Origin: a virus
Lineage: Duplodnaviria; Caudoviricetes
Direction: 5' to 3' (one strand)
Length of the DNA: 64,000 nucleotides
Virus record (IMG/VR): IMGVR_UViG_3300032216_000903
Span: 30,796 to 94,795 of that record
Part shown: positions 2,686 to 28,451 of the stretch, in pieces
How the letters are laid out: each line of letters starts with the position of its first letter
How positions within the stretch are numbered: the stretch's first letter is position 1
Notes under the pieces: model-generated
The model's database searches: none
Told to the model about the DNA's origin: nothing
The model's input: the letters and a program-made list of their open reading frames with translations, nothing else
Translations under genes and position numbers: made by a program

Positions 2686-3072
2686 ATGAATCAACAAACA
2701 GAACGTGAATCAGTAAGAGCCCTTCGCGAATGCATCGAGTTACAACTCAGCAAGTCGCGTGACTATCAGAATCCTAATTCTCGAATCAAGCAGGCAGAAT
2801 ACTATCCGAATGGCATCATCACTCTCCTCGACATCATTCATGCCAAGAAGCTTCGCATGGATTCCGTAGTCGCGGCCATGCAGCATGATCCTGAGTATAA
2901 GCCTAACTTCGAATCTCTTGAAGACTCGGCTAAGGACATGATTAACTACTGCTCATTCATCGTCTCTTACTGTCGTGGCAAGATGGAAGGTCAGAATTCA
3001 GATCGCGACTTTCTCAATCGTCGCATATCGAAACCATCCAACATCGTGCAGGAACTCTTAAACTTAAAATGA
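2686..3072 (+). CDS. nucleotide-modification-associated all-alpha protein (DUF1599/dNTP pyrophosphohydrolase-like)
   Basis: KSRDY...ESLEDSAKDMINY pattern; adjacent to dCMP hydroxymethylase. Confidence 0.6.
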   Translation: MNQQTERESVRALRECIELQLSKSRDYQNPNSRIKQAEYYPNGIITLLDIIHAKKLRMDSVVAAMQHDPEYKPNFESLEDSAKDMINYCSFIVSYCRGKMEGQNSDRDFLNRRISKPSNIVQELLNLK

Positions 3073-3761
3073 AAAACAAAAAAATGAATGTGATGGATCT
3101 TCAGTGGCACTTCTTCGAGTCTTTGATGGCCGAAGAATTCGTGACCGATAAGTCTGGCGTAAAGACGATCGAGCTGGTCGGTGCTTCGTTTATTGCCGAT
3201 GAGCCTACGATCTTTGGCACGGTCAATGAAGACTACATCAATCGTGAACTCGAGTGGTATGAGTCTCAGTCTCTGAATGTGAATGATATTCCCGGCAAGG
3301 TTCCCGAGATCTGGAAGCAGGTCGCTGACAAGGACGGCTTCATCAACTCAAACTACGGATGGTGCATCTGGTCTCCAATGAACTTCGATCAGTACAAGAA
3401 GTGCCGAGCCGAGCTGATTGCAAACAAGGACACACGTAGAGCCATCATGATCTACACTCGTCCGACGATGCATGAAGATGCCTTTCATAGCGGCCGATCC
3501 GACTTCATGTGCACCAATACCGTGCAGTACCTGATTCGCGAAGGCAAGATGCACTGCGTCGTACAAATGCGCTCGAATGATGTGGTATTCGGATATCGCA
3601 ACGATCGCGCTTGGCAGAAGCACGTCCTCGATACCTTGGTCGCCGACTATAATCGCCTGACTGAATCTAAGATCGAAGCCGGTGACATTCACTGGAACGT
3701 CGGCAGCCTACACATCTACGAGAGGCACTTCAAACTGGTCGAGGACTGGTATAAGCCATGA
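3069..3761 (+). CDS. 42: dCMP hydroxymethylase (T4 gp42-like, thymidylate synthase superfamily)
   Basis: DFMCTNTVQYLIR...MRSNDVVFGYRND closely matches T4 gp42, including Asp in RND (dCMP specificity); SLHIYERHF. Confidence 0.88.
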   Translation: MKNKKMNVMDLQWHFFESLMAEEFVTDKSGVKTIELVGASFIADEPTIFGTVNEDYINRELEWYESQSLNVNDIPGKVPEIWKQVADKDGFINSNYGWCIWSPMNFDQYKKCRAELIANKDTRRAIMIYTRPTMHEDAFHSGRSDFMCTNTVQYLIREGKMHCVVQMRSNDVVFGYRNDRAWQKHVLDTLVADYNRLTESKIEAGDIHWNVGSLHIYERHFKLVEDWYKP

Positions 3762-4189
3762 GCGACTGGGATTCTAGATTCTTGAAGATGGCTACAGAGG
3801 TCGCCGCGTGGTCCAAAGATCCGTCTCGAAAGATTGGCTGCGTGATCGTCAGGCATCGTCGCATCTTGGCATCCGGCTATAACGGGTTTCCTCGTGGAAT
3901 CAAGGATACGCCCGAAAGGCTTAATACACGTGAACTCAAGTACAAATACGTGGTTCATGCGGAGATGAATGCGATCTACAATGCGATTCAACACGGAGTA
4001 TCTTTAGACGGTGCTACGCTGTATGCCATCGGATTGCCCATCTGTTCCGAGTGTGCCAAGGGCATCATTCAGGTAGGCATCCATAGGGTCGTCATTCCTA
4101 AACAGGACATTCCAGAGCACTGGCGAGAATCTTGTGGATTCACGTACAACCTCTTCGACGAAGCTAGTATTCAATACGACATGGTATGA
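3758..4189 (+). CDS. cd: dCMP deaminase
   Basis: GYNG, HAEMNAI and PICSEC Zn motifs. Confidence 0.92.
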   Translation: MSDWDSRFLKMATEVAAWSKDPSRKIGCVIVRHRRILASGYNGFPRGIKDTPERLNTRELKYKYVVHAEMNAIYNAIQHGVSLDGATLYAIGLPICSECAKGIIQVGIHRVVIPKQDIPEHWRESCGFTYNLFDEASIQYDMV

Positions 4190-4587
4190 CAAACGTAACT
4201 GACTTCATCGTCGATCATCGAGCTTCCGATCGAGTCCTTGTGCTGGGCATGTCTCCGGCCAAGAACAATCGGCCGTTCAAGAACTGCTCGCTCAATCGAC
4301 TGAGTAAATGGATGAAGATCATAGGTCAAGGAGAGTGGTCGTTTCACAACGTCATTCCAGACGTGCATGGATCGGCCAACATATGCGACGTAGATCCACA
4401 GGCGCTTTACGACGCCGTGAACGGCAAGGAAAGGGTGATCGCGCTCGGCACGTTCGTCTCGAGCGTATGCTCTAAATACGGTATAGAACACCATCGCATC
4501 CATCATCCGTCTCCGAGGAATAGGTCCCTCAATGATCCTGGAGTCGAGAGGAAGATGCTGAGCACACTGAAAGAATACTTAAAATGA
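4186..4587 (+). CDS. uracil-DNA-glycosylase-fold protein
   Basis: VLVLGMSPA, VIALG and HPSPRN match UDG superfamily motifs A/B. Confidence 0.6.
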   Translation: MTNVTDFIVDHRASDRVLVLGMSPAKNNRPFKNCSLNRLSKWMKIIGQGEWSFHNVIPDVHGSANICDVDPQALYDAVNGKERVIALGTFVSSVCSKYGIEHHRIHHPSPRNRSLNDPGVERKMLSTLKEYLK

Positions 4588-5795
4588 TTGAACCAACACC
4601 ATACTATCAGGACTTCCTTCGCTACTTCAGGCTCGCCAAGGAACAGCAGGAGAAGTGCAACGTGTCGTTGAATCCTCCGTACGGAATGCTCACGCACGCA
4701 GAATCCAAAATGAACGACGGACTCCTCGAGAACGTGGAACTCTACGACGTCGTCGAGCGTAAGTACGCCGGATTCTCTCAGATCGTAAACGACTGCTTCT
4801 ATGGATGGACTGATAGACATCCGTACTGGAAGAAGATGGAGGCAGGTAAGATCACTCGTCAACGAGATCAGGTCGCCCATGATTGGACCGGTAAGCATGC
4901 ACACTTTGGCCTGGCCGAATGGCTCTACATCTTCATTCTCCATCGAGTATGCGGTTCCGGCATCAACTACGCTCAGAAGCCTTCGGGCTATCATAACACT
5001 CTGCTTTTGAAGCTTCATCGAGCCAAGTCGATCGAGGACATGTGTGAGATGGTCAAGAACGAGCAGAACTCCTTCTACACTTCCGTAGGATATCAGTTCC
5101 CTGCGTTTCCTAAGCCTCCGGCTGGATATAAGCGCGGAGGCGACTACTACCTCTGTGAGTTCGCTCCTCGACTGGCTCGTGATCTGGCAGACTGGCTTCA
5201 AACACCGGCATTTGGAAAGAAAACTCTACGCGGTATCGGCGAGTTCATGCTCGATTGGAATGTCGTAAACGGCCTTCGTCAGTATCACTTTCAATATGCG
5301 GCCATCATAGCCGACATCGCAGACTGGTATCCTCAATACGTCGATCGCCAATCGATGTTCTTCTATGGATCGAACGCCGAGCAGTGCATCTCGTATCTGG
5401 CTCGTCCTCTCAAGAAGATGAAGACTCAGGCTTTCCTCGACGCCGTGATGGAGATGGCGTGTAAAGATACTAATGAAGTTCCCTACAACATAGAAGACGT
5501 CTGCTGTGACTATATTCGATACTGTACAAATTACGTACGCATGGGCGAGGCATATAATTCCCTCGATCGCGACAAGGTATTCAACTCTTCGAAGATCATT
5601 CATCCGTATGGTCGACAGAAGGCGATGCTCGACCTCGGACTCGTGAAGACGTTCAACGACCCTTCGCAGAACTTCTACTACGACGAGGTGATCAAGGCAA
5701 ACAACCTGACCGAGAGGGAATACATCAAGCTCGTTCAGGATCATCCGAACTACAAGGACTGGATCGGAGTACCAGAAAAATTCCCCACTAAATAA
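4584..5795 (+). CDS. aGPT-Pplase / amino acid:DNA transferase-like protein (paralog 1)
   Basis: DGLL..YDVVER, FQYAAIIAD, GSNA and IEDVCCDYIRY resemble the aGPT-Pplase1 motifs D.IL..F.NV.R, GPGA and E..LCE..KY. Confidence 0.6.
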   Translation: MIEPTPYYQDFLRYFRLAKEQQEKCNVSLNPPYGMLTHAESKMNDGLLENVELYDVVERKYAGFSQIVNDCFYGWTDRHPYWKKMEAGKITRQRDQVAHDWTGKHAHFGLAEWLYIFILHRVCGSGINYAQKPSGYHNTLLLKLHRAKSIEDMCEMVKNEQNSFYTSVGYQFPAFPKPPAGYKRGGDYYLCEFAPRLARDLADWLQTPAFGKKTLRGIGEFMLDWNVVNGLRQYHFQYAAIIADIADWYPQYVDRQSMFFYGSNAEQCISYLARPLKKMKTQAFLDAVMEMACKDTNEVPYNIEDVCCDYIRYCTNYVRMGEAYNSLDRDKVFNSSKIIHPYGRQKAMLDLGLVKTFNDPSQNFYYDEVIKANNLTEREYIKLVQDHPNYKDWIGVPEKFPTK

Positions 5796-5799
5796 AATT

Positions 5800-6681
5800 A
5801 TGGCACACGACGAACACGTAATCGATGGCAACAATAAAGACGTCCCGATGGGAATGTCTTACGAGGAGGCGAAGCAGTACTACCTGAGCCTATGCGAGGG
5901 CTGGACTCCATACAACAGTTCTCCGATGGTGATCGAGCACGAGGGAGTGCAGGTGGTTCGAGATGACCTGACCGTGGGTACCAAGACTCGAGCCGGCGAC
6001 CTCCTCTGCTCAAAGATTCTGAATAAGACCCTCGTGTATTGTCAGCCTCGAGTTGGACTGGCCGGAGTATCTCTATGCGATGTAGCCAAGCGTCACAACA
6101 AGGACGTAGTCCTATTCATGCCGTCGTCGAAGGAGATCTCGCTCCATCAGGCTTGCTGCATCGAACGCGGAGCCACTCCGATCTTCGAACGCATCGCGGC
6201 TATGCCGAATCTTAACCTCTACGCCAAGAAGTGGGCTGACGAACACAATGCCTGTTTCATTCCTCTGGGTCTGAAGCACGAGCTAGCGACGGCGGCGATC
6301 GTGCATGCCGCCTCAACGATCCCTGAGCCCGACGAAGTGTACGTGGCTATCTCTACCGGTGTCCTCTCTCGAGCCCTTCAGATCGCTTGGCCGAATGCCA
6401 AGTTTACCTGCGTCGCCGTGGCTCGCAATCTACAGGCTGGTGAACTTGGTCGTGCTGAAGTCATCTCGGAACCTCTGGCATTTCCACAGTCTGAGAAGAA
6501 AGAAAATCTACCACCGTTTCCGACCGTTGCCAGTTACGACGGAAAAATTTGGAAATATATTCCCAAGGATGGCAAGAAGCGCCGACTGATGTGGAATGTT
6601 GGCCGTGACCCCATTCTAAAAGACGCATCGATAATTGTAAAGACGGACTCTTATCGTAAATGGAAGAAGGACATGCAATGA
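5800..6681 (+). CDS. PLP-dependent enzyme, fold type II (ACC deaminase/TrpB-like)
   Basis: VVRDDL..GTKTR (PLP lysine), VAISTG phosphate loop, YDGK, WNVG. Confidence 0.8.
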   Translation: MAHDEHVIDGNNKDVPMGMSYEEAKQYYLSLCEGWTPYNSSPMVIEHEGVQVVRDDLTVGTKTRAGDLLCSKILNKTLVYCQPRVGLAGVSLCDVAKRHNKDVVLFMPSSKEISLHQACCIERGATPIFERIAAMPNLNLYAKKWADEHNACFIPLGLKHELATAAIVHAASTIPEPDEVYVAISTGVLSRALQIAWPNAKFTCVAVARNLQAGELGRAEVISEPLAFPQSEKKENLPPFPTVASYDGKIWKYIPKDGKKRRLMWNVGRDPILKDASIIVKTDSYRKWKKDMQ

Positions 6682-7679
6682 ACGACATTCTATATCCTAA
6701 CACGGCTCAGATTACACTCAAGGACGGCAAGCCCAAGGACTCTTGGATGCGCGACTGGACGCATGAGGAGCGCGTGGCGAAGTTCTTTGAGTTCTGTCGT
6801 AAGTTTGACCTTCGTGAGGATAAGCTGCTCAGCGAAGACTATCAGATCTTCTCCCATCGCCTTCACTGGCACGAGCACCCCTTCGTTGAACTCATGACAG
6901 GAGTAAAGGACTCGCGCGATCGCCTCTGGTACGCCCTTGTCTTCTCGTTTACCAATGAGCACTGGGGTACGCTGACTCACCTGATGACGCATGGCATTGA
7001 TAAGACTCGCGAGCACTTTAAGCATAATCGTCATGCTCGATCTGACTTATTTCAGATCTACTATCCCAAGGGTACGGATGTAAAGGAATGGCTCCTGACC
7101 GGACCATTGAAGGCGGCAAATGCTCTGCATCATCATCTTACAAATGGTAAGAGATACACGATGATGCAGTTTGCCAAGATCCTCGAGGCTCACTTCAAGA
7201 AAGAACAGAACTTTCGTTCTCCGCTCTATCCGTGTAAGAACACGGCTCGATACGTTGCGATGGCGTTTCCGCACCTCGTAGATCCTGAGTCCGTCCTCTA
7301 CGGAGGTACTGGGCATTTCGACGGCATGCATCAGATCTTTCTAGAGAACGTGAATGGCAAGGCTAAGTACGAGATCGATGCGAATGGAGAGTTCGTTCCA
7401 AAGAATCATCAGGCCAATGTGTGGCTCGCTCAGATGAGTTATCTCTGCGAGCATTCAGATAATCCTATGACTTCTCAGCATTGGTTGAACGTAGAGGATA
7501 AGGGATGTTTTTTTTACAAACACATTGCGATTACACATGATGTGAAGAGTCCAACGAAGCGCATTCCATACACGTGGATCTTTCCAGAGAATTTCAATCT
7601 GGCAAAGCATCCGGCTGGTAAAGTGATAATCAATGGTAAAACAACTTCACAAATAGATGTACAAGGCTCATTTGACTGA
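6678..7679 (+). CDS. aGPT-Pplase / amino acid:DNA transferase-like protein (paralog 2)
   Basis: DKLL..YQIFSHR, GGTGHFDG and NVEDKGCFFYKH follow the same layout as 4584-5795; ATGA overlap with the PLP gene. Confidence 0.5.
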   Translation: MNDILYPNTAQITLKDGKPKDSWMRDWTHEERVAKFFEFCRKFDLREDKLLSEDYQIFSHRLHWHEHPFVELMTGVKDSRDRLWYALVFSFTNEHWGTLTHLMTHGIDKTREHFKHNRHARSDLFQIYYPKGTDVKEWLLTGPLKAANALHHHLTNGKRYTMMQFAKILEAHFKKEQNFRSPLYPCKNTARYVAMAFPHLVDPESVLYGGTGHFDGMHQIFLENVNGKAKYEIDANGEFVPKNHQANVWLAQMSYLCEHSDNPMTSQHWLNVEDKGCFFYKHIAITHDVKSPTKRIPYTWIFPENFNLAKHPAGKVIINGKTTSQIDVQGSFD

Positions 7680-7694
7680 TATAATGTCTACAAT

Positions 7695-7889
7695 ATGACA
7701 CACGAGTTCGAGCATCCTATGTGGGTCAAGACTCCACTGGGACATGGATTGGCCGTCATGATTATAGACTACGGTATCCACTTGAATAGCTGCTGGGTGG
7801 TTGCGCTAGAAGATCACGACTGGCAGATAAAGCATTTCGATTCAAATGACATTAAGCTAAATCGTAACGACACCTGGAAGATTCAATAA
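7695..7889 (+). CDS. hypothetical protein
   Basis: ORF behind a TGTACA..TATAAT promoter. Confidence 0.65.
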   Translation: MTHEFEHPMWVKTPLGHGLAVMIIDYGIHLNSCWVVALEDHDWQIKHFDSNDIKLNRNDTWKIQ

Positions 7890-7891
7890 TC

Positions 7892-8998
7892 ATGAAAGCA
7901 TTAGTCACGGCACCATTCATTCCGATAGTTCCTCGTTTGGCATCACATAGATCCTCGCAAGGTGTCATCTATGCCGATCAGATTCGACAGACTGGCGAGT
8001 ATGATGTTGTCGATATCAACTGGGCAGGCAATGCTCACGAAGATCATAATCAATACGACGTAGTCTACGTTTACTGGGGATCCGACTGGACCGGTGGCTT
8101 GAATCTCTTTGGTGGAGTGCAATCGTTTCCCTATGCTTGGAACATTCGTAACTTCTCAAAGTTCAAGGGCAAGGTATATTCTTTGGCCGTAGACTTTCCA
8201 AAGATCGATGAGATGATTGAAGAACGCATTCTAAATGCTTCGAGCAAGAAGAAGGAGATTCAGCCAGAGTGGCTCGAAGTCGATATTCAGAATCTCAAGC
8301 GCATGCGTATTGAATCTACTCGAGTTCGTTTTCCACACATCACGGAGAAGGTGGTCATTGGAGACTCTCATTCAATCTGCATGCATCGTCCGGGATGGAC
8401 GGTCAACTCAGTTCCATTCAAGACTCTGAATGGTGCATTGTCGCTCGGGCTCAATACATTCATCGAAGAGTTCACCTCCATCGATCGAGTATCTTCTGCT
8501 GAGTTCTACTTTGGCAACATCGACGTGCGTCATCATCTCTGTCGTTTGGAAGGTGATTCATTTACAAACACGATGTCTCTGGCTCTTCGATATGTAGAGG
8601 CCGTCGAGATGCTTCCGATCAAGGACGTGTCGATCTACGAACTCCTACCCCTCGAGAACGAGTCTCGTAAGTTACCTAAGACCGGTTACTATAAAGGCAA
8701 GCCGTTCTGGGGAACATGGGCTCAGCGCGCTGAAGTCCGTCATACATTTAATCAGGCCGTCGAGAAGGCCACACGTCGTGCCAAGTTCATTCGCTGGACC
8801 GACTATCTTCTGAACGACAAGGGCGAGCTCGACTTTAAGTTCATGGAGAAGCCTCATTCGATTCATCTTTCACGCGAGTTCTATCCTCATTGGAATGGAA
8901 TAGATACCTTCAGCACTCCGAAGAAATTATCTAAAGTGCCGCATAAACCTGAATTATTAGAAGTACCGCATAACTCCCTAGAAACCTTTTTTGAATGA
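7892..8998 (+). CDS. SGNH/GDSL-fold protein (esterase/acyltransferase-like)
   Basis: VVIGDSHS, FGNID and SIHLS blocks. Confidence 0.6.
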   Translation: MKALVTAPFIPIVPRLASHRSSQGVIYADQIRQTGEYDVVDINWAGNAHEDHNQYDVVYVYWGSDWTGGLNLFGGVQSFPYAWNIRNFSKFKGKVYSLAVDFPKIDEMIEERILNASSKKKEIQPEWLEVDIQNLKRMRIESTRVRFPHITEKVVIGDSHSICMHRPGWTVNSVPFKTLNGALSLGLNTFIEEFTSIDRVSSAEFYFGNIDVRHHLCRLEGDSFTNTMSLALRYVEAVEMLPIKDVSIYELLPLENESRKLPKTGYYKGKPFWGTWAQRAEVRHTFNQAVEKATRRAKFIRWTDYLLNDKGELDFKFMEKPHSIHLSREFYPHWNGIDTFSTPKKLSKVPHKPELLEVPHNSLETFFE

Positions 8999-9017
8999 CT
9001 TCGAAAAATAATTACTC

Positions 9018-9057
9018 AGTCCATGTGCTGGATAGTATAAATACCAGCACATGGACT
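9018..9057 (+). promoter_or_regulatory. 14-bp hairpin sequestering the HEG start codon, with late promoter TATAAATA (9036-9043) in the loop
   Basis: perfect inverted repeat agtccatgtgctgg / ccagcacatggact. Confidence 0.85.
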
Positions 9058-9647
9058 CAATAATCAAATCAGAAGGTTACGTATATCACATTCAAAACCC
9101 AAACAATCCATCGATAGAAGAAGGATATATCGGTGTCGTAAATGCTAAAAAGGGCATCTATCGAAGATTTCGAGAACATTCTACTGATTGCGATCATATG
9201 CGAAAGCGTATAAGAGAAAATAATGTAACATTTGAAAACCATGTTAAAATAGTATTTCAAGGCTCATTAAAAGAATGTTATATGAAAGAACATGAATTGA
9301 GATCATCTCAAAAAATAGGATGGAATGTAGCTAGTGGTGGAGCTGGATGGAATTATAAAAGTGATATCAGCGATTTATCTAAATATCGTTCTGATATTCA
9401 AAAGCAAAGAATGGAAGATGAAGATTTGAAACGTCGTCAAAGCGAATCATTCAAAAAGAATTATTATGCTAATGAAGAAGTTCAAAAGCTTCGCAGTGAT
9501 CGAGCAAAAGAACATATGTCAAATCCTGAAAAACGCGATAAATGTTTAAATGCGATGCATAAAAAAATTAAGTGCCCACATTGTGAATATGAAAATAATG
9601 CAGGAAACGTGAAGTTACATATTAAAAGAAAACATTCAAATGATTAA
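9051..9647 (+). mobile_element. free-standing GIY-YIG homing endonuclease (Seg-like) with C-terminal C2H2 Zn finger
   Basis: GYVY...GYIG...RFREH...E...GWN; CPHC..H..H; markedly AT-rich relative to flanks. Confidence 0.8.
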
Positions 9648-10845
9648 ACATGCCAGTATCGTCCCATTGATTGGTGGTAATACACTAGCTTCTCAAAATA
9701 TATTTGGTCATAGACCAGACTATCTTCTATCATATTCACCATTTAAAGCCAATGATTCACATCTTGTAAACTATTATGATAATGAAATGCCATATATTTT
9801 ATTAGATGAAGGTGGTAAGTATCCTCACAAGGTCGATGTTGTTACAACGTGTTGCCCTTGTGCAGGTCTCTCGGCTCTATCGCCTTCCGCGTCTGGTACG
9901 AGCGCGATGAACGAATGGATGTTTCGTTCGGCTGAATATGTCCTTGGCAACATCAAGCCTCGTGTATTCTGGGGTGAGAATGCGCCACGTCTGGCATCAA
10001 AGCTTGGAGAACCTGTGGTAGATCGCCTTCGTAAGATTGGCAAGGAGAATGGATATACGTTCTCGATCTTTAAGACCAAGTCAAAAGTACATGGACTCTC
10101 ACAGGTCCGTGAACGTACATTCTACTTCTTCTGGCAAGGAGATAAGATTCCGCTCCTCGAGTACTGCAATCATTCTTCCAATGAACGCATCGAGGATACA
10201 ATCGACATGGCAAAGAATGCGGCCAAGAACGACCCGATGTCTCAGATCCTGGCTTCGAAGAAGGTTCCTTCACAGGATCCTTACTATCGCTACCTTCTCG
10301 AAGAGGTTCATGGAGGCATCTCTCATCGCAAGTTTGCCGAGTCACTCACTCGAACGGCCAACGTGCTTCGCTCGATCGAGGGAGCACCGGGTCACGACTA
10401 CATGCGAGTCGCCGCTTGGATGGAAAAGAACGGATTCTCTAAGCTCGCTGAACGATCCAAGGGAATGCATCTGAAGCTAGGCATGGGTGGAAACATTATG
10501 CGTAAGCAGATCGAGGTACCGTGCGACGTCATCGGCGCATTTGTCGGTCACATGCCCACGATGCTCACACATCACCGTCACGATCGATTCCTCAACGTCC
10601 GTGAGTGCCTATCGATCATGAAGATGCCTCTGGACTTTCAACTCCTGAATCCGCTTCGCAATCTGAATCACGTATGTCAGAACGTTCCGGTCACGACGGC
10701 CGAACATCCGGCTCGAATGGTCAAGATGTTCCTCGAAGATAAGCTTCCGCTCGATGACTACGCGGACGGATTCTTGATTCAGGACAATGTGCGCCAGTGC
10801 GTCACGTCTGGAGAAGCGGCCTCACTGGAAACATTTATGGCTTAA
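9640..10845 (+). CDS. divergent C5-cytosine DNA methyltransferase-like protein
   Basis: PCAGLS (motif IV), GENAP (VI), QVRER (VIII), RFLNVRE, QNV; motif I is degenerate (VPLIGG). Confidence 0.75.
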   Translation: MIKHASIVPLIGGNTLASQNIFGHRPDYLLSYSPFKANDSHLVNYYDNEMPYILLDEGGKYPHKVDVVTTCCPCAGLSALSPSASGTSAMNEWMFRSAEYVLGNIKPRVFWGENAPRLASKLGEPVVDRLRKIGKENGYTFSIFKTKSKVHGLSQVRERTFYFFWQGDKIPLLEYCNHSSNERIEDTIDMAKNAAKNDPMSQILASKKVPSQDPYYRYLLEEVHGGISHRKFAESLTRTANVLRSIEGAPGHDYMRVAAWMEKNGFSKLAERSKGMHLKLGMGGNIMRKQIEVPCDVIGAFVGHMPTMLTHHRHDRFLNVRECLSIMKMPLDFQLLNPLRNLNHVCQNVPVTTAEHPARMVKMFLEDKLPLDDYADGFLIQDNVRQCVTSGEAASLETFMA

Positions 10846-13628: not shown

Positions 13629-14288
13629 ATGAAGAACACGGTAGAACTAATCGGCCACTACGGCTCAGATCAAATACACGCATGCTCCGCATGGACGTCA
13701 ACGTCACGAGAACTATCAGATGAAAAAGTACAACGCATTCCTAAACTTCTCAAGATGTTGGCTGATCAAGGTCATCACACTCCCTTTGAAAAGTCTAGCC
13801 TTCATTTTCTGGTCGATTGTGATATTGCTTCTCACATTCACATACTTAAGCATCGGGTTGGCGTTTCTGTCAATGGTGAGTCTGCAAGGTATAAAGAACT
13901 TAAAGAAGACAAGTACTACCTCCCCGAAGACTGGAGAGGAGTAGCCGATTCGGAACTCGCTGAATACAACGTCGAGACGAACTGGGCAAACAATCTGAAG
14001 GCATACACGGAGAAGGGCAACGAGCTGTACCATCGCTGCATCAAGGATCTGGAACCGGTACTCGGTCGTAAGCGTGCTAAAGAGTCCGCACGATTCTTCA
14101 AGACGTACAACTCGCGGATTCAGGCCGACGTGATGTTCAACTGGCGATCCTTTGCCCACTTCTTGAATCTGAGGAACAAACCAGATGCTCAGCTCGAGAT
14201 TCGTGAGATCGCAGCCGAGATGCTTCGTCTGGTCAAGGAGATTCCCGGCAATCCGTACGAGCACACCGTCGCGGCATTTGGACTATGA
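13629..14288 (+). CDS. thyX: flavin-dependent thymidylate synthase ThyX
   Basis: HHTPFE, KHR...SARY, LR...AQLEIR. Confidence 0.92.
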   Translation: MKNTVELIGHYGSDQIHACSAWTSTSRELSDEKVQRIPKLLKMLADQGHHTPFEKSSLHFLVDCDIASHIHILKHRVGVSVNGESARYKELKEDKYYLPEDWRGVADSELAEYNVETNWANNLKAYTEKGNELYHRCIKDLEPVLGRKRAKESARFFKTYNSRIQADVMFNWRSFAHFLNLRNKPDAQLEIREIAAEMLRLVKEIPGNPYEHTVAAFGL

Positions 14289-15010
14289 AGATACCGTATC
14301 GCATCGACTTGGCAGGAGGTTGGCTCGATCAGCCCTTCGTCTCTAAGCTGTGTCCCGGGTGCGTACTTGGTATCTCCATCGAGCCGACCGTCGAATTCAA
14401 CGATCGATCTGGCATGGCGACGAGCACTCGATATAAAGCCATCGATCTTTGGCAGAATGAAATTCCACAAGGAGATTCAGAGAGACTCGCCAAGATCTTA
14501 TTCGCATATGAGAATCCTCCTGGCACGGTCGAAGTGGCTGGTTCGCAGGACGCGATCAACCTCGTGATGCCTGCACTGAAGCGATTGAATTACACAGGCA
14601 ACTATTGGCCATCGAGCATTGAAGTCATAGATGATGAGGCTACACTCTCTTGGCTCGAATCGTGCTTATATCTCATACCTCTTGAACCTCGAAATGGCGA
14701 ATATGATGTCTTGAGTAATCAGAATGTCACTCAGGAAAATGTAGCCAGACTGGCATCGGCGGCCGATTTATGTTGGAATGCCATTCGAAATCACGATGTA
14801 GCTTCACTTGGTAAACATATGCGAGAGTCGTTTGAAGCTCAGGTGTATATGTTTCCAAATATGATCAACTCGCATATACAGAAGTTCATAAATCAGTATC
14901 AGTCACAGGCACTCGGATGGAAGATCTCTGGAGCAGGCGGAGGAGGCTACTTGATATTTGTCAGCGACAGGCCCATAATCAACAGCATTCAAATAAAGAT
15001 ACGCCGATGA
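14285..15010 (+). CDS. GHMP-family sugar kinase (HddA/Fkp-like)
   Basis: PYRIDLAGGWLD, SGMATS, GSQD, KISGAGGGG. Confidence 0.85.
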   Translation: MKIPYRIDLAGGWLDQPFVSKLCPGCVLGISIEPTVEFNDRSGMATSTRYKAIDLWQNEIPQGDSERLAKILFAYENPPGTVEVAGSQDAINLVMPALKRLNYTGNYWPSSIEVIDDEATLSWLESCLYLIPLEPRNGEYDVLSNQNVTQENVARLASAADLCWNAIRNHDVASLGKHMRESFEAQVYMFPNMINSHIQKFINQYQSQALGWKISGAGGGGYLIFVSDRPIINSIQIKIRR

Positions 15011-15165
15011 CCGAGATCATTGTTACGGACATGACGCTTGACGACCTGTTCATTGCCATGCAGCCCACGGAGGAAGACCGTGAGCAGGCCAGGCACTGGA
15101 TAGAATCCGAACGTCGTATAAATACAGCCAGCACACATGAAATCATTCAAAAACTACCTCTCTGA
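15007..15165 (+). CDS. small hypothetical protein
   Basis: ATGA overlap with the kinase stop. Confidence 0.4.
   Translation: MTEIIVTDMTLDDLFIAMQPTEEDREQARHWIESERRINTASTHEIIQKLPL
15117..15124 (+). promoter_or_regulatory. T4-type late promoter TATAAATA
   Basis: exact consensus 12 nt before the ATG at 15137. Confidence 0.8.
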
Positions 15166-16657
15166 AGGCATCTCACCGGCTGGCCTGCACAAGGCAGCCG
15201 TGCTGATCAAGTCATACCTCCATCGCAAACTCGAGGCCGAGCTGTTTCACTTTCCCGACGCGGAAGAATACAAGAGCGACGAGTACGGCCATGGATACGG
15301 CATTCGATTCTTCATTCCCGCCGGCAATCGCTCGGTCCGCATCAACTGGACGGCGGCGAACTCGATCGGCATGACCGGTGTGTCTTCGGCCGACGTGTGG
15401 TTGGATTCCAAGACGCCGTATCACGTCAAGTTTGACGCCGAGCAGTCTCTGGTCCAGACCCTTCCGATCATCGCGGACATCCTGACTGGCGACACCAAGT
15501 CTGGTCACTTTCTCACTCCTCCGGCCAAGGTCGACCTGAACGAGTCGCTCGACATGCGCACGGCTTCCCTGCTCATCGAGTCCGTCCATCCCGAAGAGGC
15601 CTACGACGGCATCGTAGCGATGATCAAGGACAATCGCTTCAAGAAGTACGGACCCGGTTCCGTGTACGATCAGTATCGCAAGACCGGTGAGCTCATCTTC
15701 AATGCACTGGTCAAGGCGTTTCCTCAGTACATCACGAAGAAGGGTGCAGGATTCATCTGGTCCGGTAAGCCCGAAGACGTCCGTGACTTGGTCATCGCCA
15801 AGTCGAAGATCCTCTCGGACCTCGGATGTACCGGTGCGTCCGTCTCTCGCGGATCGGCCGAAGAGTATCCGGCGGATCCCAAGACGGAAAAGCTGATCGA
15901 ACGCCTCCCTTTTAAGACGCAGCTCGCTGACCTCCGTCACCTGATCAAGATGACGATCGGCGGATCCTCGAACGCCCTCTTCGTTGCCGGTCGCGGCGGC
16001 GTCGGTAAGACCCATACGGTCGAGGAAGTGCTGCATGAACTCGGTCTCAAGGACGGCGACGGCTACTTCAAGAACACGGGCACGGCTTCTCCTGCCGGTC
16101 TGTACACCCTCCTCTTTCGCTACAAAGACGGCGTGATCCTGTTCGACGACTCGGACGACGCGCTGAAGGATCAGGAAGCACGCAACATCCTGAAGGCGGC
16201 GACGGACACCAAGAAAGTCCGTAAGCTCGTCTGGAATAAACGTGGATCCAACGTCGTGGATCCGGACGACGACCGTTCGGACGAAGAGATCCTGGACGCC
16301 GGTGAGATTCCTCGCTACTTCGAATTCACGGGCAAGGTCATCTTCATCTCGAACCTGAACATGGACAAACTCGATCCGGACGGCGCCATTCGCACCCGCG
16401 CTTATATGATCGACATCAATCCCACGGACGACGAGGTGTACGACTTCATGGAAGAGATTTGCGACAAGGTCCCATTGCAGTCCGGTTTGTCCCTCTCACA
16501 TAAAGATCGCTTGAAAGTCATCTCGATCCTGCGTCAGGGCAAGTCGAAACAGACGGCCAATCTTCGTAAGCTCTCACGCGGCCTGAACATGTATGCGGCG
16601 GGCGGCGCCAATCTGAGCGAGGAAGAACTGGTGCGAATGATCTCGACGTACGCTTAA
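15137..16657 (+). CDS. AAA+ ATPase with capsid-targeting-like N-terminus
   Basis: GRGGVGKT Walker A, ILFDDSD Walker B, IFISN sensor; N-terminus MKSFKNYLSE. Confidence 0.75.
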   Translation: MKSFKNYLSEGISPAGLHKAAVLIKSYLHRKLEAELFHFPDAEEYKSDEYGHGYGIRFFIPAGNRSVRINWTAANSIGMTGVSSADVWLDSKTPYHVKFDAEQSLVQTLPIIADILTGDTKSGHFLTPPAKVDLNESLDMRTASLLIESVHPEEAYDGIVAMIKDNRFKKYGPGSVYDQYRKTGELIFNALVKAFPQYITKKGAGFIWSGKPEDVRDLVIAKSKILSDLGCTGASVSRGSAEEYPADPKTEKLIERLPFKTQLADLRHLIKMTIGGSSNALFVAGRGGVGKTHTVEEVLHELGLKDGDGYFKNTGTASPAGLYTLLFRYKDGVILFDDSDDALKDQEARNILKAATDTKKVRKLVWNKRGSNVVDPDDDRSDEEILDAGEIPRYFEFTGKVIFISNLNMDKLDPDGAIRTRAYMIDINPTDDEVYDFMEEICDKVPLQSGLSLSHKDRLKVISILRQGKSKQTANLRKLSRGLNMYAAGGANLSEEELVRMISTYA

Positions 16658-20823: not shown

Positions 20824-22053
20824 ATGAAAAGCTTTCGTCAGTTCATCCTCTCAGAGGGATCCGGTCACCTCACACACGTAGAAGACTCGGTCCTGTACTC
20901 CGGCGTCTCCGGCGCCAAAAAGGCCATTCAGACCCTCAAATCGGTCCGCGACTCGCTGACCGGCAAGGGAAACAAGCCGGTGTCCGTCACGGTCAAGTGG
21001 GACGGAGCCCCAGCGATCTTCTGCGGCATCGATTCGGCGGACGGCAAGTTCTTTGTCGCCAAGAAGTCGATCTTCAATAAGGTCCCGGAGGTATACAAGA
21101 CGCCGGACGACATCGATGCGGCCATCGCTGCCGGAGACCTCAACAACAAGATGCAGGTCGCTCTGGCCGAACTGTCTAAGCTCGGCATTCGTGGAATCAT
21201 TCAGGGCGACATCATGTTCACGGAAGACACCGTGAAGCGCGAGACGATCAAGGGACAGGAGTACATCACGTTCCATCCAAATACAATCGTATATGCCGTT
21301 CCAGTCGACTCTGAGATCGGCAAAAAGGTATCGATGGCCAAGATCGGCGTGGTCTTTCATACATCATACACCGGTAAGCTTGGATCTCTCGAAGCCGTTC
21401 CTGGAGTGAATGCCAAGTCGATGAAGCAGGTCCCCTCGGTCTGGTGGCAGACTGCGGATCTCAAGAGCACCATGGCTCCTGACGTGAAACCCGAAGACTT
21501 AATGCAGATCGATAAGCTTCTAAAGCAGGCCGATCAGACTCTCTCCAAGATCTCTCCCAATACACTTAATGCCATCGAGACGAGCTCAGATCTGGCTCAA
21601 GAGCTGGAAACCTATGCCAATTCCAAGGTCCGTTCTGGCCAAGAGATCGGCGATCCGGCCAAGCATGTGGCTGGTCTGATGAACTGGATGAAGGCTCGAT
21701 TCGATAAGGAAGCGGCTGAGAAGAAGACGACTAAAGGCAAAGAAGCCGTTGATGCTCGTCGTCAGGCTCGCATGGAGTTCTTCTCGGGCGACAACGTGAA
21801 TAACTTGGTTCTCATCTTTACGCTTCAGCAGATCTTGGTCGATGCCAAGAAGCTCCTGATCTCGAAGCTGAATCAGCTCGGCGGAGTGAATACTTTTCTC
21901 AAGACGAAGGGTGGATATGAGAAGACCGGACAGGAAGGATACGTGGTTGGCGATCCGATTGGTGGCAACACGGTCAAGCTCGTTGATCGCCTTGGCTTCT
22001 CGAGGGCCAACTTCAGTCCAGACGTCGTTAAGGGCTGGGATCATCAGAAGTAA
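20824..22053 (+). CDS. DUF6267-like protein with RNA-ligase-type nucleotidyltransferase motifs and capsid-targeting leader
   Basis: HLTHVED, KWDG (motif I), QGD, EGYV (IV), VKLV (V); N-terminus MKSFRQFILSE. Confidence 0.7.
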   Translation: MKSFRQFILSEGSGHLTHVEDSVLYSGVSGAKKAIQTLKSVRDSLTGKGNKPVSVTVKWDGAPAIFCGIDSADGKFFVAKKSIFNKVPEVYKTPDDIDAAIAAGDLNNKMQVALAELSKLGIRGIIQGDIMFTEDTVKRETIKGQEYITFHPNTIVYAVPVDSEIGKKVSMAKIGVVFHTSYTGKLGSLEAVPGVNAKSMKQVPSVWWQTADLKSTMAPDVKPEDLMQIDKLLKQADQTLSKISPNTLNAIETSSDLAQELETYANSKVRSGQEIGDPAKHVAGLMNWMKARFDKEAAEKKTTKGKEAVDARRQARMEFFSGDNVNNLVLIFTLQQILVDAKKLLISKLNQLGGVNTFLKTKGGYEKTGQEGYVVGDPIGGNTVKLVDRLGFSRANFSPDVVKGWDHQK

Positions 22054-22078
22054 TATCGTATAAATACGTACATATCTT

Positions 22079-23119
22079 ATGGGAAACACGAATAGCTCCA
22101 TTACGTTTAAAGATCTTAAAGCCGTCGACTACACTTTCGACAACGTTGATGACGACGGCCTAATCAATCTTCAAACCTTTAAGCGTCATCGTTGCCTTCG
22201 CGAGGTCGGTCTTCCATATCGCAAGGCTAATTCCCGACGAGTGATCGAGCGCGTCAAGCGCCGTGAGTCCCGTCCCTATCTCAGTCTGGCCGGCAACAAG
22301 CTCGCTGAGGCTAAGTCGGCCTTCAACGTCAATGAGCTTGATTCTGAATTTCTGAGCCGCGCTGAAAATAATCCGAGTCTGAATCTACTCGTCGAAGACT
22401 TCTCCAAGAAAAACAATCGTAAGAAAGAAATTCAGTACCTGATCAAGAAGCATTACTTTCCAGACTTCAATCTGTCAGCCACTCTCGATGACGACGACAT
22501 CACGGATGTGGCCGTCAACACTATGATCACCAGACTGAAAAAGGAGAATCCTGAGACTTTCAAGATCCTATTCACCATGCTCGGTGGTCAAGGAATTGGA
22601 CCCGGCGAGGCGATGCTGTATTTCATCTACAATAAAGCATACATTCACGGCGGCTTCGGCAAGACTGGCGACATCGAGATCGGCAATAAGATATATGAAT
22701 GCAAAGCGATTCAGATTATTGGAGCTAGGCCGAATGAGATAAATGATCTACGTCTGGGTGGTACGGTAGACACGGCGAGCATCGTTTCGCGAATAAAGGC
22801 TCTGTACAAAAAGCAGATCGATTCGAACTACGAAGTGGGTGCAAAGGGATATGAAGGAGCACAAGGAACGGATCCCATCATTGCTCTCAGAACAAATCCT
22901 AAGACTCGGGCGGAGTTTAAAAAGATCGAGTCTGACTATCAAAAATTGGCCTATGAAAAGTACTTCGAGCTGCATGAATTCATCTTCTTGAATAATTCTA
23001 CCAAGCTCGAAGAGATGGGTAAGATCGTGATGCCCGTCGGAAAGATCAAGCAGAGTTCGATTCAGATCGAGCGCATCACGCAGAATATCTTGAAGCCCGT
23101 CATCTTGAAGAACAAATAA
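22079..23119 (+). CDS. late protein with C-terminal PD-(D/E)XK nuclease-like domain
   Basis: TATAAATA at 22059; GPGE...GDI...YECK. Confidence 0.55.
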   Translation: MGNTNSSITFKDLKAVDYTFDNVDDDGLINLQTFKRHRCLREVGLPYRKANSRRVIERVKRRESRPYLSLAGNKLAEAKSAFNVNELDSEFLSRAENNPSLNLLVEDFSKKNNRKKEIQYLIKKHYFPDFNLSATLDDDDITDVAVNTMITRLKKENPETFKILFTMLGGQGIGPGEAMLYFIYNKAYIHGGFGKTGDIEIGNKIYECKAIQIIGARPNEINDLRLGGTVDTASIVSRIKALYKKQIDSNYEVGAKGYEGAQGTDPIIALRTNPKTRAEFKKIESDYQKLAYEKYFELHEFIFLNNSTKLEEMGKIVMPVGKIKQSSIQIERITQNILKPVILKNK

Positions 23120-23121
23120 TC

Positions 23122-24165
23122 ATGGGTCACATCAAATCATTTCGTCAGTTCCTCGAGGCGACGATCAAGGAGATCACGGTCACGTTTGGCCGCTTCAATC
23201 CTCCTACGATCGGCCACGAGAAGCTTCTGAACGCTGTGGCTTCAGAGGCGGCTGGTGGTACCTATAAGATCTACGTCTCTCAGACGACGGACGAGAACAA
23301 GAATCCACTTCAGTACTCCGAGAAGGTGAAGCTCATGCGTTCCATGTTTCCTAAGCATGGTCGCAACATCATCGAGGATAAGTCAATCAAGACGATCTTT
23401 GATATTGCTCAGAAGGCATATAAGGACGGATTTACTCGATTCGTCTTGGTCGTCGGTGAAGATCGAGTCGAGGAGTTCTCGAAGCTCCTGAAGAAGTACG
23501 AAGGTCAGCAACTCAAAGACGGCGGCTTCTACGACTTTCCCGGCGGCATCGAAGTAGTCTCGGCTGGAGATCGTGATCCGGACTCAGACGATGTCGAAGG
23601 CATGTCGGCCTCTAAGATGCGTCAGGCCGTGAGAGATGGAGATCTGGTTGCATTCTCGAAAGGTCTGCCGAGGGGTTACGAAGATTCAATCTCCGTGTTC
23701 AATCTTCTTCGCAAGCGCATGGGATTAAAAGAGACGACGAACTTTCGCGAACACGTTCAGCTCACTCCTCTGTCTTCCATTCGCGAGGCTTATGTTCGCG
23801 GAGAGATCTTTCGAGTCGGCGACTCCTGTCGTCTGAAGGGCGGAGAGATCATTCAGATCGTCAAGCGCGGTCCTAACTTCTTGGTTACGGACGATCAAAA
23901 GAAGCACTGGCTTCAAGACGTGCAGCCCATTCATGAGGGATGGGCGACGGATGCTTATAAGAAAGCCGGTGGCAAGGGACTGCTTTATATCGACAAATCA
24001 GATGAACAGACCGAACTTACCAAGCCTTCAGAGATTAAGGCGGGATTGGCAAATATGGATAAGCTCGATCCAAAGTATGTCGATTCTTTTAAGGTCTTTA
24101 AGAATCTGAACGGCGCCGTAGCATTCAAAGAGATTGCTTATGTTCCATTCTTTCATCTAATTTAA
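23122..24165 (+). CDS. cytidylyltransferase/HIGH-superfamily nucleotidyltransferase with capsid-targeting leader
   Basis: FGRFNPPTIGH, KNPL, VGEDR, MSASKMR; N-terminus IKSFRQFLE. Confidence 0.8.
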   Translation: MGHIKSFRQFLEATIKEITVTFGRFNPPTIGHEKLLNAVASEAAGGTYKIYVSQTTDENKNPLQYSEKVKLMRSMFPKHGRNIIEDKSIKTIFDIAQKAYKDGFTRFVLVVGEDRVEEFSKLLKKYEGQQLKDGGFYDFPGGIEVVSAGDRDPDSDDVEGMSASKMRQAVRDGDLVAFSKGLPRGYEDSISVFNLLRKRMGLKETTNFREHVQLTPLSSIREAYVRGEIFRVGDSCRLKGGEIIQIVKRGPNFLVTDDQKKHWLQDVQPIHEGWATDAYKKAGGKGLLYIDKSDEQTELTKPSEIKAGLANMDKLDPKYVDSFKVFKNLNGAVAFKEIAYVPFFHLI

Positions 24166-24178
24166 TAAATAGAATTCA

Positions 24179-25564
24179 ATGAATCTAACCGAATCAATCA
24201 AGCACCTCATGTCTGAGGGCAAACTGGAGTGGACGACTACGGATGAAGTCACTGGCGCCGAAGAGGCCACGCTCCCCGATGGATCTAAGTTCGCCATTCA
24301 TAACATCACGGGAACGCTGTCCTTGATGTATGTCGGTAAGGACGGCAAGGGCAACGTGATCTATCGCACTCCGGCTGGTGTTCCCATGGCGTTCAAGAAA
24401 GCCAAGCAGGAAGCCGAGAAGTTCTTGGGCATCAAGAAGGATAAAGATTCGAAGAAGGAAGACGACAAGAAGGCCGATAAGAAGGAAGGCGAAGTCGAGG
24501 AAGAGCTCGGCTCCGAAAACGAATGGGGTACGGACGAGCTGACCGACAAAGAGAAAGCCGTCACTCCCGGTCAAACTCCTAAGAAAGAGGGGCTCGAAGA
24601 CGCCTGCTGGTCCGGCTACAAGGCGATCGGTACCAAGGAGAAGGACGGCAAGACGGTTCCGAACTGCGTGCCCGAGTCTACGGACGAAGACCTCAAGAGC
24701 CTGCAGGACCTGCTGAATAATCCTGACGAGGAATTTGCCGTGAAGAACTACGGCTCCGTCGAGCGCTACAAGAAGATGATTCAGTCCAAGATCGACAAGC
24801 TGCAGAAGAACGAAGACTTCTCGGGTGCCAGCTTCTCCGGCGCCGGTCAGACCACGCTGAAGCCTACGGATAAGATTTCGGTGCGATATGGATCGCTCTA
24901 CGTCAACGACCGTCCGTTCGAAGCCAAAGATCCCGATGAAGCCCTCGACTGGCCAAATTCTACGGATTCGAATGGCAATCTCGTCACCTGGTTTAAGGGC
25001 GACTCGAATCAAAAGAGCACTTGGAAACCAGAGCAGATCACCGGCCGCTACACGGACAAAGAAGACGTCGGCATCGAAGAGAAGGTCGAAGTCTCTGAGC
25101 GCTACGTCAAGACCATGCAGCTCATCACCAAGGAGACCGATCGCTCCATCATCGAAGCGTTCCTCACGGAGCATACGATCGCTGGCCGTGAATCCAACCT
25201 CTTGGCCATCAATACGGAATTCAAACGCTTCAAGAAGCTGCACGAGGCAGAGAATTTTCTGAGCAATGATACAATGAAAGATCTGGTCGATAAGATTCGC
25301 CTAAAGATTAGCAAAGTGATCGATGACGAATGGCATAATACCGCGATCATTCATGATTGGATCAAAGAGAATCCTGAAAAAGTCTCTCATTACATGAGCA
25401 GGAAAAACTGGGACTCTCTTGCTTCTATCGCGGCCGATGAGATCTCTACAAAATGGGAAGAAGATCCAAAAGGTCATTATGGCAAATACCTTGATCATCG
25501 CCAATACCTTCATCCGAGCGGACAGACTAGACGCTCGAGCTTATACAAATCGCTGCCCATTTGA
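24179..25564 (+). CDS. mosaic acidic late protein (putative internal head polyprotein)
   Basis: leader MNLTESIKHLMSE; modules GTDELT and CWSGY..VPNCVPE separated by xxE sites. Confidence 0.7.
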   Translation: MNLTESIKHLMSEGKLEWTTTDEVTGAEEATLPDGSKFAIHNITGTLSLMYVGKDGKGNVIYRTPAGVPMAFKKAKQEAEKFLGIKKDKDSKKEDDKKADKKEGEVEEELGSENEWGTDELTDKEKAVTPGQTPKKEGLEDACWSGYKAIGTKEKDGKTVPNCVPESTDEDLKSLQDLLNNPDEEFAVKNYGSVERYKKMIQSKIDKLQKNEDFSGASFSGAGQTTLKPTDKISVRYGSLYVNDRPFEAKDPDEALDWPNSTDSNGNLVTWFKGDSNQKSTWKPEQITGRYTDKEDVGIEEKVEVSERYVKTMQLITKETDRSIIEAFLTEHTIAGRESNLLAINTEFKRFKKLHEAENFLSNDTMKDLVDKIRLKISKVIDDEWHNTAIIHDWIKENPEKVSHYMSRKNWDSLASIAADEISTKWEEDPKGHYGKYLDHRQYLHPSGQTRRSSLYKSLPI

Positions 25565-25589
25565 TAATCAGATCTAATAAATACTCGAA

Positions 25590-26555: not shown

Positions 26556-26556
26556 T

Positions 26557-27729: not shown

Positions 27730-27752
27730 GTTCGTGAGACTAATCGACTGAT

Positions 27753-28076: not shown

Positions 28077-28083
28077 CAAGGAT

Positions 28084-28413: not shown

Positions 28414-28451
28414 GAAACCTATAAATAGAATTCACAATCAACTAACTAACT

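Follow-up and report, generated by a model that had tools for sequence, protein, structure and literature searches.

Pathways that combine an amino acid:DNA transferase (AADT) with a pyridoxal phosphate (PLP) enzyme have been described on thymine only, where they operate together with a DNA kinase (PMC8989533, PMC11472151, PMC13458397). In phages M6, ViI, PaMx11 and PhiW-14, these thymidine pathways consist of a 5-hydroxymethyluracil DNA kinase (5-HMUDK), an AADT of the aGPT-Pplase2 type and a gp52-type PLP decarboxylase (PMC8989533, PMC11472151). The tailoring known for 5-hydroxymethylcytosine (hmC) relies on sugars or on carbamoylation (PMC8670742), and non-sugar cytosine derivatives include 5-carbamoyloxymethylcytosine (PMC8670742) and 5-carboxymethylcytosine-glycine amide (PMC12783734). 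For viral contigs with TET and C5-methyltransferase genes, a P-loop kinase and an aG/PT-PPlase have been hypothesised to act on hmC, with no product known (Burke et al. 2021, PMC8256090). Here, a module of AADT-like and PLP enzyme genes lying next to a hydroxymethylase gene is described in IMG/VR record IMGVR_UViG_3300032216_000903. This viral contig spans 94,795 bp, is ca. 52% complete (CheckV) and comes from a freshwater T4-like phage that has not been cultured. The window analysed is the right-hand 64 kb of this contig (64,000 nt, contig positions 30,796 to 94,795) and carries the module at positions 2686-10845; positions below are those of the window unless the contig is named.

The occurrence of a conserved AADT/PLP-related gene set in the slot held by beta-gt in T4 indicates that the phage DNA probably holds an undescribed cytosine modification. 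A post-replicative, kinase-independent, amino-acid-type tailoring of hmC by the module is the reading to which we give a little better than an even chance. No such amino-acid-type cytosine adduct and no such gene set were found in the literature searched.

Gene order and conservation of the cluster

Eleven open reading frames (ORFs) of the + strand are packed into 2686-10845, with 4-bp start/stop overlaps at 3069/3072, 3758/3761, 4186/4189, 4584/4587 and probably also 6678/6681, and an 8-bp overlap at 9640/9647. The compact and translationally coupled cluster first noticed in an initial annotation of this DNA was thus recovered, and that candidate observation as a whole was confirmed. The genes from the hydroxymethylase to the last of those occupying the beta-gt slot are as follows, except for a short ORF listed further below.

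3069 to 3761, + strand: deoxycytidine monophosphate (dCMP) hydroxymethylase, orthologue of T4 gp42 (phmmer E 9.6e-92 to PDB 1b49/1b5e, full length)
3758 to 4189, + strand: dCMP deaminase (Pfam dCMP_cyt_deam_1, E 7.9e-22; phrog_174, E 1e-45)
4186 to 4587, + strand: putative uracil-DNA glycosylase (UDG)-fold protein of 133 aa, usual motif A catalytic residue missing
4584 to 5795, + strand: AADT-like protein 1 of 403 aa, predicted helix-hairpin-helix (HhH)-glycosylase-like fold, invariant Glu304 and Cys308
5800 to 6681, + strand: fold-type II PLP enzyme, homologue of M6 gp52 (phrog_7093, E 5.9e-34)
6678 to 7679, + strand: AADT-like protein 2 of 333 aa (339 aa from 6660), invariant Asp208, Glu279 and Cys283
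7892 to 8998, + strand: chimera of 368 aa, with a T4 beta-glucosyltransferase (BGT)-like N-domain and an SGNH-like C-domain

In T4, the genes follow the order 44-62-regA-43-imm-42-beta-gt-homing endonuclease-uvsX-40-41. The contig matches it with clamp loader, polymerase, gp42 orthologue, uvsX and DnaB-type helicase, the beta-gt slot being filled by the deaminase, the UDG-like gene, AADT-like protein 1, the PLP enzyme, AADT-like protein 2 and the chimera.

The family of the 403-aa protein was found on 579 IMG/VR contigs, and also among hundreds of metagenome proteins on contigs of up to ca. 190 kb. Eighty related loci were compared, and further counts come from 43 loci with enough downstream DNA and 45 with enough upstream DNA. 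The chimera is encoded in all of the 43, the PLP enzyme in 41, AADT-like protein 2 in 33, a methyltransferase-like gene in seven and an endonuclease in one, while the hydroxymethylase lies near the module in 35 of the 45 and is encoded somewhere in each of five large relatives. From these counts, the minimal conserved set is composed of the hydroxymethylase, AADT-like protein 1, the PLP enzyme and the chimera. At the DNA level, a megablast search of the region against 50,697 phage records returned no match; several studies of lakes and fresh waters have yielded metagenome runs with nearly identical DNA (0.21-0.35 of the sampled words shared).

Precursor base and tailoring enzymes

The product of 3069-3761 is ca. 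60% identical to T4 gp42. Its 'RSNDVVFGYRND' aligns with 'RSNDVVFGFRND' of T4, which puts the dCMP-specifying Asp at the position of ThyA Asn177, and the catalytic Cys within 'DFMCT' is aligned as well. Some gp42-like enzymes make 5-hydroxy-dCMP and are marked by an Asn at the ThyA Asp169 position (PMC13326640, 2026). This position is an Asp in the window hydroxymethylase and in at least 40 of 47 relatives, so that a 5-hydroxy-dCMP synthase was ruled out and a hydroxymethylase is the supported reading. With full-length similarity, the catalytic Cys and both Asp residues in place, the prediction of a gp42-type enzyme held, and the data support a product that makes 5-hydroxymethyl-dCMP. Because such an enzyme is dCMP-specific, the precursor would be hmC. 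In one 160-kb relative, the gp42 orthologue (159094-159798) has one in-frame TGA.

The dCMP deaminase gene, which the initial annotation had not reported, overlaps the stop of the hydroxymethylase gene and is found near the module in 26 of 45 relatives. Its product might turn 5-hydroxymethyl-dCMP (or dCMP) to the uracil series, the target then being 5-hydroxymethyluracil (hmU) in an M6/ViI-like thymidine hypermodification whose activating enzyme has escaped recognition. The AADTs and gp52-like enzymes characterised so far all work on hmU derivatives (PMC8989533). We nevertheless hold an hmU target to be distinctly improbable, given that the dCMP-specifying Asp occurs throughout the hydroxymethylase family, that a domain of BGT, an enzyme specific for hmC, is present in the chimera and that ordinary deoxythymidine monophosphate (dTMP) is supplied by ThyX, encoded elsewhere in the window as first noted; in the 19 relatives in which the deaminase is not near the module, the tailoring genes remain. 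A dCMP deaminase serves dTMP supply in T4 as well, and this too speaks against hmU as the target.

The two proteins flanking the PLP enzyme were modelled with AlphaFold (AF2) from alignments of relatives (predicted local distance difference test, pLDDT, of 87 for each) and compared with 48,161 PDB representatives in a structure search independent of Foldseek. For both models, the best match is 8z2m_A (PaMx11 gp46; Z 8.7, root mean square deviation 4.2 Å), with 209 residues aligned for the 403-aa and 220 for the 339-aa model, and the matches ranked next form a consistent series of HhH DNA glycosylases and DUF2419. Both models therefore appear to have the two-lobed HhH-glycosylase-like fold of PaMx11 gp46. 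In Foldseek searches against the PDB, neither model has a match at E<=0.001, and 8z2m still ranked first for the 339-aa model. Other matches of the 403-aa model, in BFVD, are to Pplase clade 1 and to the helical domain of 5-hmdU DNA kinases. One BFVD entry, 59% identical to this protein, is listed in UniProt as 'Amino acid:DNA transferase domain-containing protein'.

PaMx11 gp46 is a 5-phosphomethyl-deoxyuridine glycinyltransferase with Cys247 as proposed nucleophile (PMC11472151), and both M6 gp51 and ViI gp247 require a catalytic Cys and a nearby Glu (PMC8989533). Around its catalytic Cys, M6 gp51 reads 'NIQEVETVLCKW'. The 403-aa family displays an invariant 'N-I-E-D-V-C-C' (E304, C308) and the 339-aa family 'N-V-E-D-K-G-C' (E279, C283), the motif 'N.ED..C' being present in 75 of 80 and 57 of 59 relatives, respectively; remote members of the 339-aa family keep E-x-x-x-C as 'LESVLC', 'IEAQVC' or 'HEAHLC', to be compared with 'VETVLC' in M6. 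In an hhalign comparison of the 403-aa family with eight known AADTs, the catalytic segment alone aligns, with C308 opposite the catalytic Cys (E 0.0024, probability 12%). Both families thus seem to possess the catalytic Cys with a nearby Glu that is typical of AADTs.

BLASTP and hhalign comparisons between the two proteins were not significant before remote members were added. With these included, the two families align over 251 columns (hhalign probability 79.6%, E 1.5e-5), Glu on Glu and Cys on Cys, which indicates distant paralogues and agrees with the pair of AADT-like paralogues flanking a PLP enzyme that had been proposed from the outset. The further suggestion that such a pair might serve two sequence contexts found nothing to support it, and pairs are already typical of thymidine systems (PMC8989533).

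Sequence searches place both proteins at some distance from the described families. Neither has a match to any Pfam family at E<=10, their family profiles gave nothing relevant against PDB sequences, and tblastn of either protein against the 50,697 phage records returned no match, so that the 403-aa family occurs in no cultured phage of that set. With a fold and a motif in common with AADTs but no match to the Pfam ADDT family (PF18724; 0 of 29 and 0 of 29 relatives at E<=1, when M6 gp51 used as a control scores 159.6 bits), the two proteins are filed here as a distant clade predicted to work like AADTs from outside that family. The search for AADT relatives called for by the initial annotation was therefore borne out for the fold and not for Pfam membership.

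The PLP enzyme is more readily connected with a characterised protein. Its family profile aligns with M6 gp52 over 246 columns (hhalign probability 94.4%, E 8.9e-8), shows weak similarity to the fold-type II cysteine synthases (E 0.016) and contains an invariant Lys62 in 'GTKTR', so that both homology to gp52 and a conserved lysine for PLP point to a gp52-type enzyme. M6 gp52 is a PLP-dependent decarboxylase acting on glycinyl-thymine in DNA (Lee et al., PMC8989533).

The closest homologues of this PLP enzyme in cultured phages, with 31-33% identity, are gp1 of Erythrobacter phage vB_EliS_R6L and a protein of Microcystis phage Mae-JY30 (5986-6696). Both are annotated as 'DNA modification methylase'; one lies within a large protein that spans the start of its record and the other follows two ParB/sulfiredoxin genes. 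From such homologues, the same PLP domain seems to serve in other DNA-modification systems.

No kinase of the thymidine type was detected next to these enzymes. The 5-hmdU DNA kinase model PF18748, which scores well on M6 gp54, has no match in the contig at E<=10; five large relatives, among them a 99%-complete record of 160 kb, gave no match at E<=1 either. The reported lack of an hmU-DNA-kinase-like gene thus persisted in this wider search. A Walker-A scan of the contig retrieved replication and repair ATPases, PhoH, a MoxR-like ATPase, a peptidase-like protein of 775 aa and an AAA protein of 506 aa only, with no candidate kinase inside the module, and ribonucleotide reductase was the sole match when the ORFs of M6 were compared with the whole contig by phmmer. 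A GHMP-kinase-like ORF of 241 aa that follows ThyX (14285-15010; borderline GHMP-kinase C-terminal match, 22 bits for a cut-off of 21) was considered as a possible activator and discarded, as none of the 80 related loci has it.

Between a primase-like gene and the module, positions 21654-30246 of the contig, just upstream of the window, encode GT2, a NAD-dependent epimerase, GT11, GT10, GT2, GT11-like and GT17, together with two S-adenosylmethionine (SAM) methyltransferases, DUF3431 and a radical SAM enzyme. Upstream of the module, seven glycosyltransferase-family genes and a sugar epimerase were counted. Parts of this block, which could build a glycan on DNA or elsewhere, recur in only five of the 80 related loci. 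It bears on an explanation in which the HhH-like proteins would not be group transferases and would act in hmC-DNA binding, as glycosylase-like proteins, in repair or in anti-defence. The final base would then be plain hmC, an O-acyl form produced by the chimera on its own or, in the contig studied, a glycosylated form. The upstream glycosyltransferases are consistent with the last of these, and the lack of an ADDT match, the occurrence of the same fold in DNA glycosylases and in the helical domain of 5-hmdU kinases, and the failure to find a kinase that would make the known AADT substrate suit this explanation in general. It is here considered unlikely. Glu-x-x-x-Cys is invariant in both families, at the place of the catalytic Cys of AADTs, and their genes are tightly linked to that of a gp52-type PLP enzyme, M6 gp52 being one that decarboxylates an amino-acid adduct on DNA. 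As for the glycosyltransferase block, its presence in five of 80 loci means that it cannot explain the conserved core.

The last member of the minimal set was initially described as an SGNH-fold protein, a description that may suit its C-terminal half, the whole being a chimera with a BGT-like N-terminal domain that had gone unnoticed. PF09198 (BGT N-domain model, 167 positions) matches nine of 16 members of the chimera family with a best E of 2.4e-4, and the 368-aa protein of the window itself gives no match at E<=10. In hhalign, the family profile aligns with T4 BGT (probability 59%, E 9.2e-5), residues 28-102 falling on 27-101 in the same register, and a BGT N-domain thus appears supported at the level of the family. 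Asp101 of the chimera falls on Asp100 of T4 BGT, the proposed catalytic base of that enzyme, and an Asp is kept in 13 of the 16 relatives. The N-terminal domain of BGT is presumably the part that binds the hmC-DNA acceptor. No alignment to T4 BGT was obtained past residue 102, so that the sugar-nucleotide-binding C-terminal domain is left without a match. Beyond this point, GDSH (157-160), G208, I210, D211 and H325 are invariant in the family, and GNID (208-211) has its Asn in 14 of 16 members; H325 occurs without the Asp that stands three residues before the His in SGNH block V (DxxH). Language-model neighbours of residues 140-345 include SGNH esterase clusters (score 0.94). The C-terminal half is a candidate SGNH-like domain.

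The chimera is also 34% identical to the first ca. 330 residues of a 795-aa protein, ORF233c (6001-8388) of Aeromonas phage 44RR2.8t. This longer protein is found in T4-like Aeromonas phages, and its gene adjoins a sodium:solute symporter-like gene.

A pathway can be proposed from these data. In a first step, the gp42 orthologue would, on the strength of its close homology, produce 5-hydroxymethyl-dCMP, while MazG-like pyrophosphatases and the dCMP deaminase would reshape the nucleotide pool, so that hmC would enter DNA at replication. In a second step, hmC would be tailored after replication by the enzymes of the beta-gt slot: the active-site Cys of the two AADT-like proteins, preceded four residues earlier by the Glu, would attack C6 to give a 5-methylene intermediate, an amino acid or another nucleophile would add to this intermediate, and the gp52-like PLP enzyme would trim the adduct, most likely by decarboxylation. 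The chimera may intervene in a third step by supplying or removing an ester on the 5-CH2OH, and would thereby stand in for the kinase as activator or complete the product; its N-domain is presumed to bind hmC DNA, and its C-domain would be an acyl-transferase or esterase of the SGNH type. The expected end product is a non-sugar, amino-acid-derived 5-substituted cytosine.

The most speculative element is an esterification of the 5-CH2OH by the chimera, which would create a leaving group comparable to the phosphate of the thymidine pathways. A complete scheme built on it, in which O-acylation by the BGT-N/SGNH chimera activates hmC, a new Cys-dependent AADT-like clade swaps the ester for an amino acid and the gp52-like PLP enzyme decarboxylates the product to an aminoalkyl-type cytosine not seen before, is tentative and, taken with all its parts, rather improbable.

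AADT/PLP chemistry on hmC without the usual kinase, as put forward in the initial annotation, remains the best-supported reading in view of the gp42 orthologue, the AADT fold with its Glu/Cys dyad, the gp52 homologue, the beta-gt slot and the lack of a PF18748 match. Several points weigh against it, starting with the failure of either AADT-like protein to match Pfam ADDT and with a subclade (10 of 43 loci) that lacks the second paralogue. A Z of 8.7 is middling for helical proteins, so that the weight given to the AADT fold comes from the same AADT ranking first twice, the uniform list of glycosylases and the motifs, and not from Z alone. Profile-profile similarity to known AADTs is marginal at best, and the expanded 339-aa family profile was not significant against the eight known AADTs in hhalign (probability 0.08%). 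For the chimera, SGNH lacks support from hidden Markov models (HMM), Lipase_GDSL_2 of Pfam being matched by one of 16 relatives at E 0.14, and its family profile had no useful match in the PDB; the acyl-activation idea takes domain identity and linkage as its whole basis. With the contig ca. 52% complete, a kinase from a different family may be encoded elsewhere, the upstream glycosyltransferases could glycosylate hmC instead, and the adjacent dCMP deaminase leaves the hmU route open. The cytosine modification itself is a prediction from gene content.

Neighbouring genes and putative transcription units

The other features of the region are listed below.

2644 to 2672, + strand: promoter-like site TGTACA-N17-TATAAT just 5' of the first gene of the module (consensus match only)
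2686 to 3072, + strand: MazG-like or 'hydrolase'-like protein of 128 aa (phrog_18404 'hydrolase', E 1.9e-12)
7658 to 7685, + strand: second promoter-like site, TGTACA-N16-TATAAT (consensus match only)
7695 to 7889, + strand: non-conserved ORF of 64 aa, present in one of 80 loci
9051 to 9647, + strand: putative GIY-YIG-like homing endonuclease with a C-terminal C2H2-type zinc finger (motifs 'GYVYHI' and 'GYIGV' by eye)
9640 to 10845, + strand: C5-cytosine methyltransferase-like accessory gene (Pfam DNA_methylase, E 1.9e-13, 51 bits for a cut-off of 22)
13629 to 14288, + strand: ThyX, flavin-dependent thymidylate synthase, given as context (Pfam Thy1, E 5.9e-33)

The gene at 2686-3072 is conserved beside the hydroxymethylase in 35 of the 45 relatives with enough upstream DNA. 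The nucleotide-modification-associated domain first listed for the cluster found no support: the product of this gene has no Pfam match at E<=10, PF07659 (Nmad1/DUF1599) included, and it matches phrog_18404 instead. Upstream of the window, the contig encodes a family B polymerase, a primase-like protein and a MazG/PRA-PH-like pyrophosphatase; a MazG-like protein from there matches another part of phrog_18404.

For the putative UDG-fold protein, both UDG motifs align, with 'GQCP'/'GMSP' on G(Q/M)(A/N)PG and HPSPRN on HPSPRN, and the profile support is weak, with an E of 0.016 for the UDG-superfamily entry 3ikb and of 0.035 for SMUG1 (1oe4). Motif A reads GQCPS/GMSPA, without the Asn of SMUG1, and the 4186-4587 product is probably a pyrimidine-flipping or pyrimidine-binding module.

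These neighbours are also relevant to whether the module acts on DNA at all. Nucleotide-pool enzymes are encoded beside it, and DUF2419 proteins, queuine-salvage enzymes whose substrates are nucleotides and nucleosides, figure among the structural neighbours of the AADT-like proteins, as would be expected if free nucleotides were modified ahead of replication or if RNA (tRNA, for instance) were the substrate. Against this, the best structural match and the PLP homologue both act on DNA, the putative UDG-fold neighbour points to flipped bases in DNA, and the BGT-like N-domain would, going by the T4 BGT structure, point to DNA as well; a nucleotide or RNA target is accordingly seen as highly unlikely.

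The 9051-9647 gene, whose GIY-YIG-like nature was not part of the initial annotation, shows a weak C2H2 match and a dip in GC content to 0.41, and is present in one of 43 relatives; the GIY-YIG assignment found no HMM support. It is a probable insertion of a mobile homing endonuclease, outside the pathway. The following gene, found in seven of the 43, encodes a largely intact methyltransferase-like protein with motifs PC, ENA, QVRER, RE and QNVP and a variant motif I ('VPLIGG'). By its Pfam score and motifs, it qualifies as a putative C5-cytosine DNA methyltransferase, much as first described. No match was obtained with solved chains, C5-methyltransferases included (phmmer, E<=0.01), and a CmoX-type carboxymethyltransferase was considered as another reading. 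Homologues with 29-30% identity occur in cyanophages of the S-TIM5 group and in Pseudoalteromonas phage XG4, and in S-TIM54 the homologue is found two genes from a ThyA gene.

Sites of the type TGTACA-N16/17-TATAWT number three in the 64-kb window, with none expected, and all three precede gene starts (2686, 7695 and 10888, the last being the uvsX homologue). As consensus matches only, these sites suggest two transcription units, 2686-7679 and 7695-10845. Downstream of the module, the 506-aa protein (15137-16657) is an AAA_16 P-loop protein with Walker A at residue 285 and occurs in six of the 80 related loci; in one relative, the gene after ThyX matches Aldolase_II.

Implications and comparison with described pathways

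Should the proposed tailoring of hmC be true, AADT/PLP chemistry would extend to cytosine and a hydroxymethyl base would be activated independently of a kinase. Enzymes that recognise and derivatise hmC in duplex DNA would be of interest for epigenetic labelling and sequencing. The new base would occur in an abundant freshwater phage group, known from lake metagenomes and from the 579 viral contigs carrying the 403-aa family, and would matter for restriction, for evasion of CRISPR and for bias in metagenome sequencing.

Among the described systems, the pathways leading to 5-carbamoyloxymethylcytosine (PMC8670742) and 5-carboxymethylcytosine-glycine amide (PMC12783734) likewise put non-sugar groups on a C5-substituted cytosine, the latter with a C5-methyltransferase homologue and an amino acid. 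They use other families, a carbamoyltransferase and CmoA/CmoX/CmoY, respectively, none of which was detected in the module, where the methyltransferase-like gene is accessory. The TET/C5-methyltransferase contigs (PMC8256090) share with the module a Pplase-type enzyme proposed for hmC in phage DNA, and the concept of hmC plus a Pplase is therefore not wholly new. In these contigs, hmC arises after replication through a methyltransferase and TET, and a P-loop kinase is present, whereas in the module it would be made by gp42 before replication and no such kinase was found.

With the thymidine pathways, the module has in common a transferase fold of the HhH-glycosylase-like type with a Glu/Cys dyad, often with paired HhH proteins, a gp52-homologous fold-type II PLP enzyme and clustering with a ThyA-fold hydroxymethylase. 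It departs from them by a hydroxymethylase that is specific for dCMP, by the absence of a PF18748 kinase, by transferase-like proteins that fall outside Pfam ADDT, by an extra BGT-N/SGNH-like chimera and a putative UDG-fold protein, and by its location in a T4-like phage. Finally, the glucosylation of hmC in T4 (gp42, gp56, gp1, alpha-gt and beta-gt) shares with the module a gp42 orthologue with 60% identity, the gene order around 43, 42, uvsX and 41, tailoring genes in the beta-gt slot and the N-domain of BGT, which is retained in the 368-aa protein. The module differs from that of T4 in that a putative SGNH-like domain would stand in for the C-terminal domain of BGT and in that the AADT-like and PLP enzymes come in addition.

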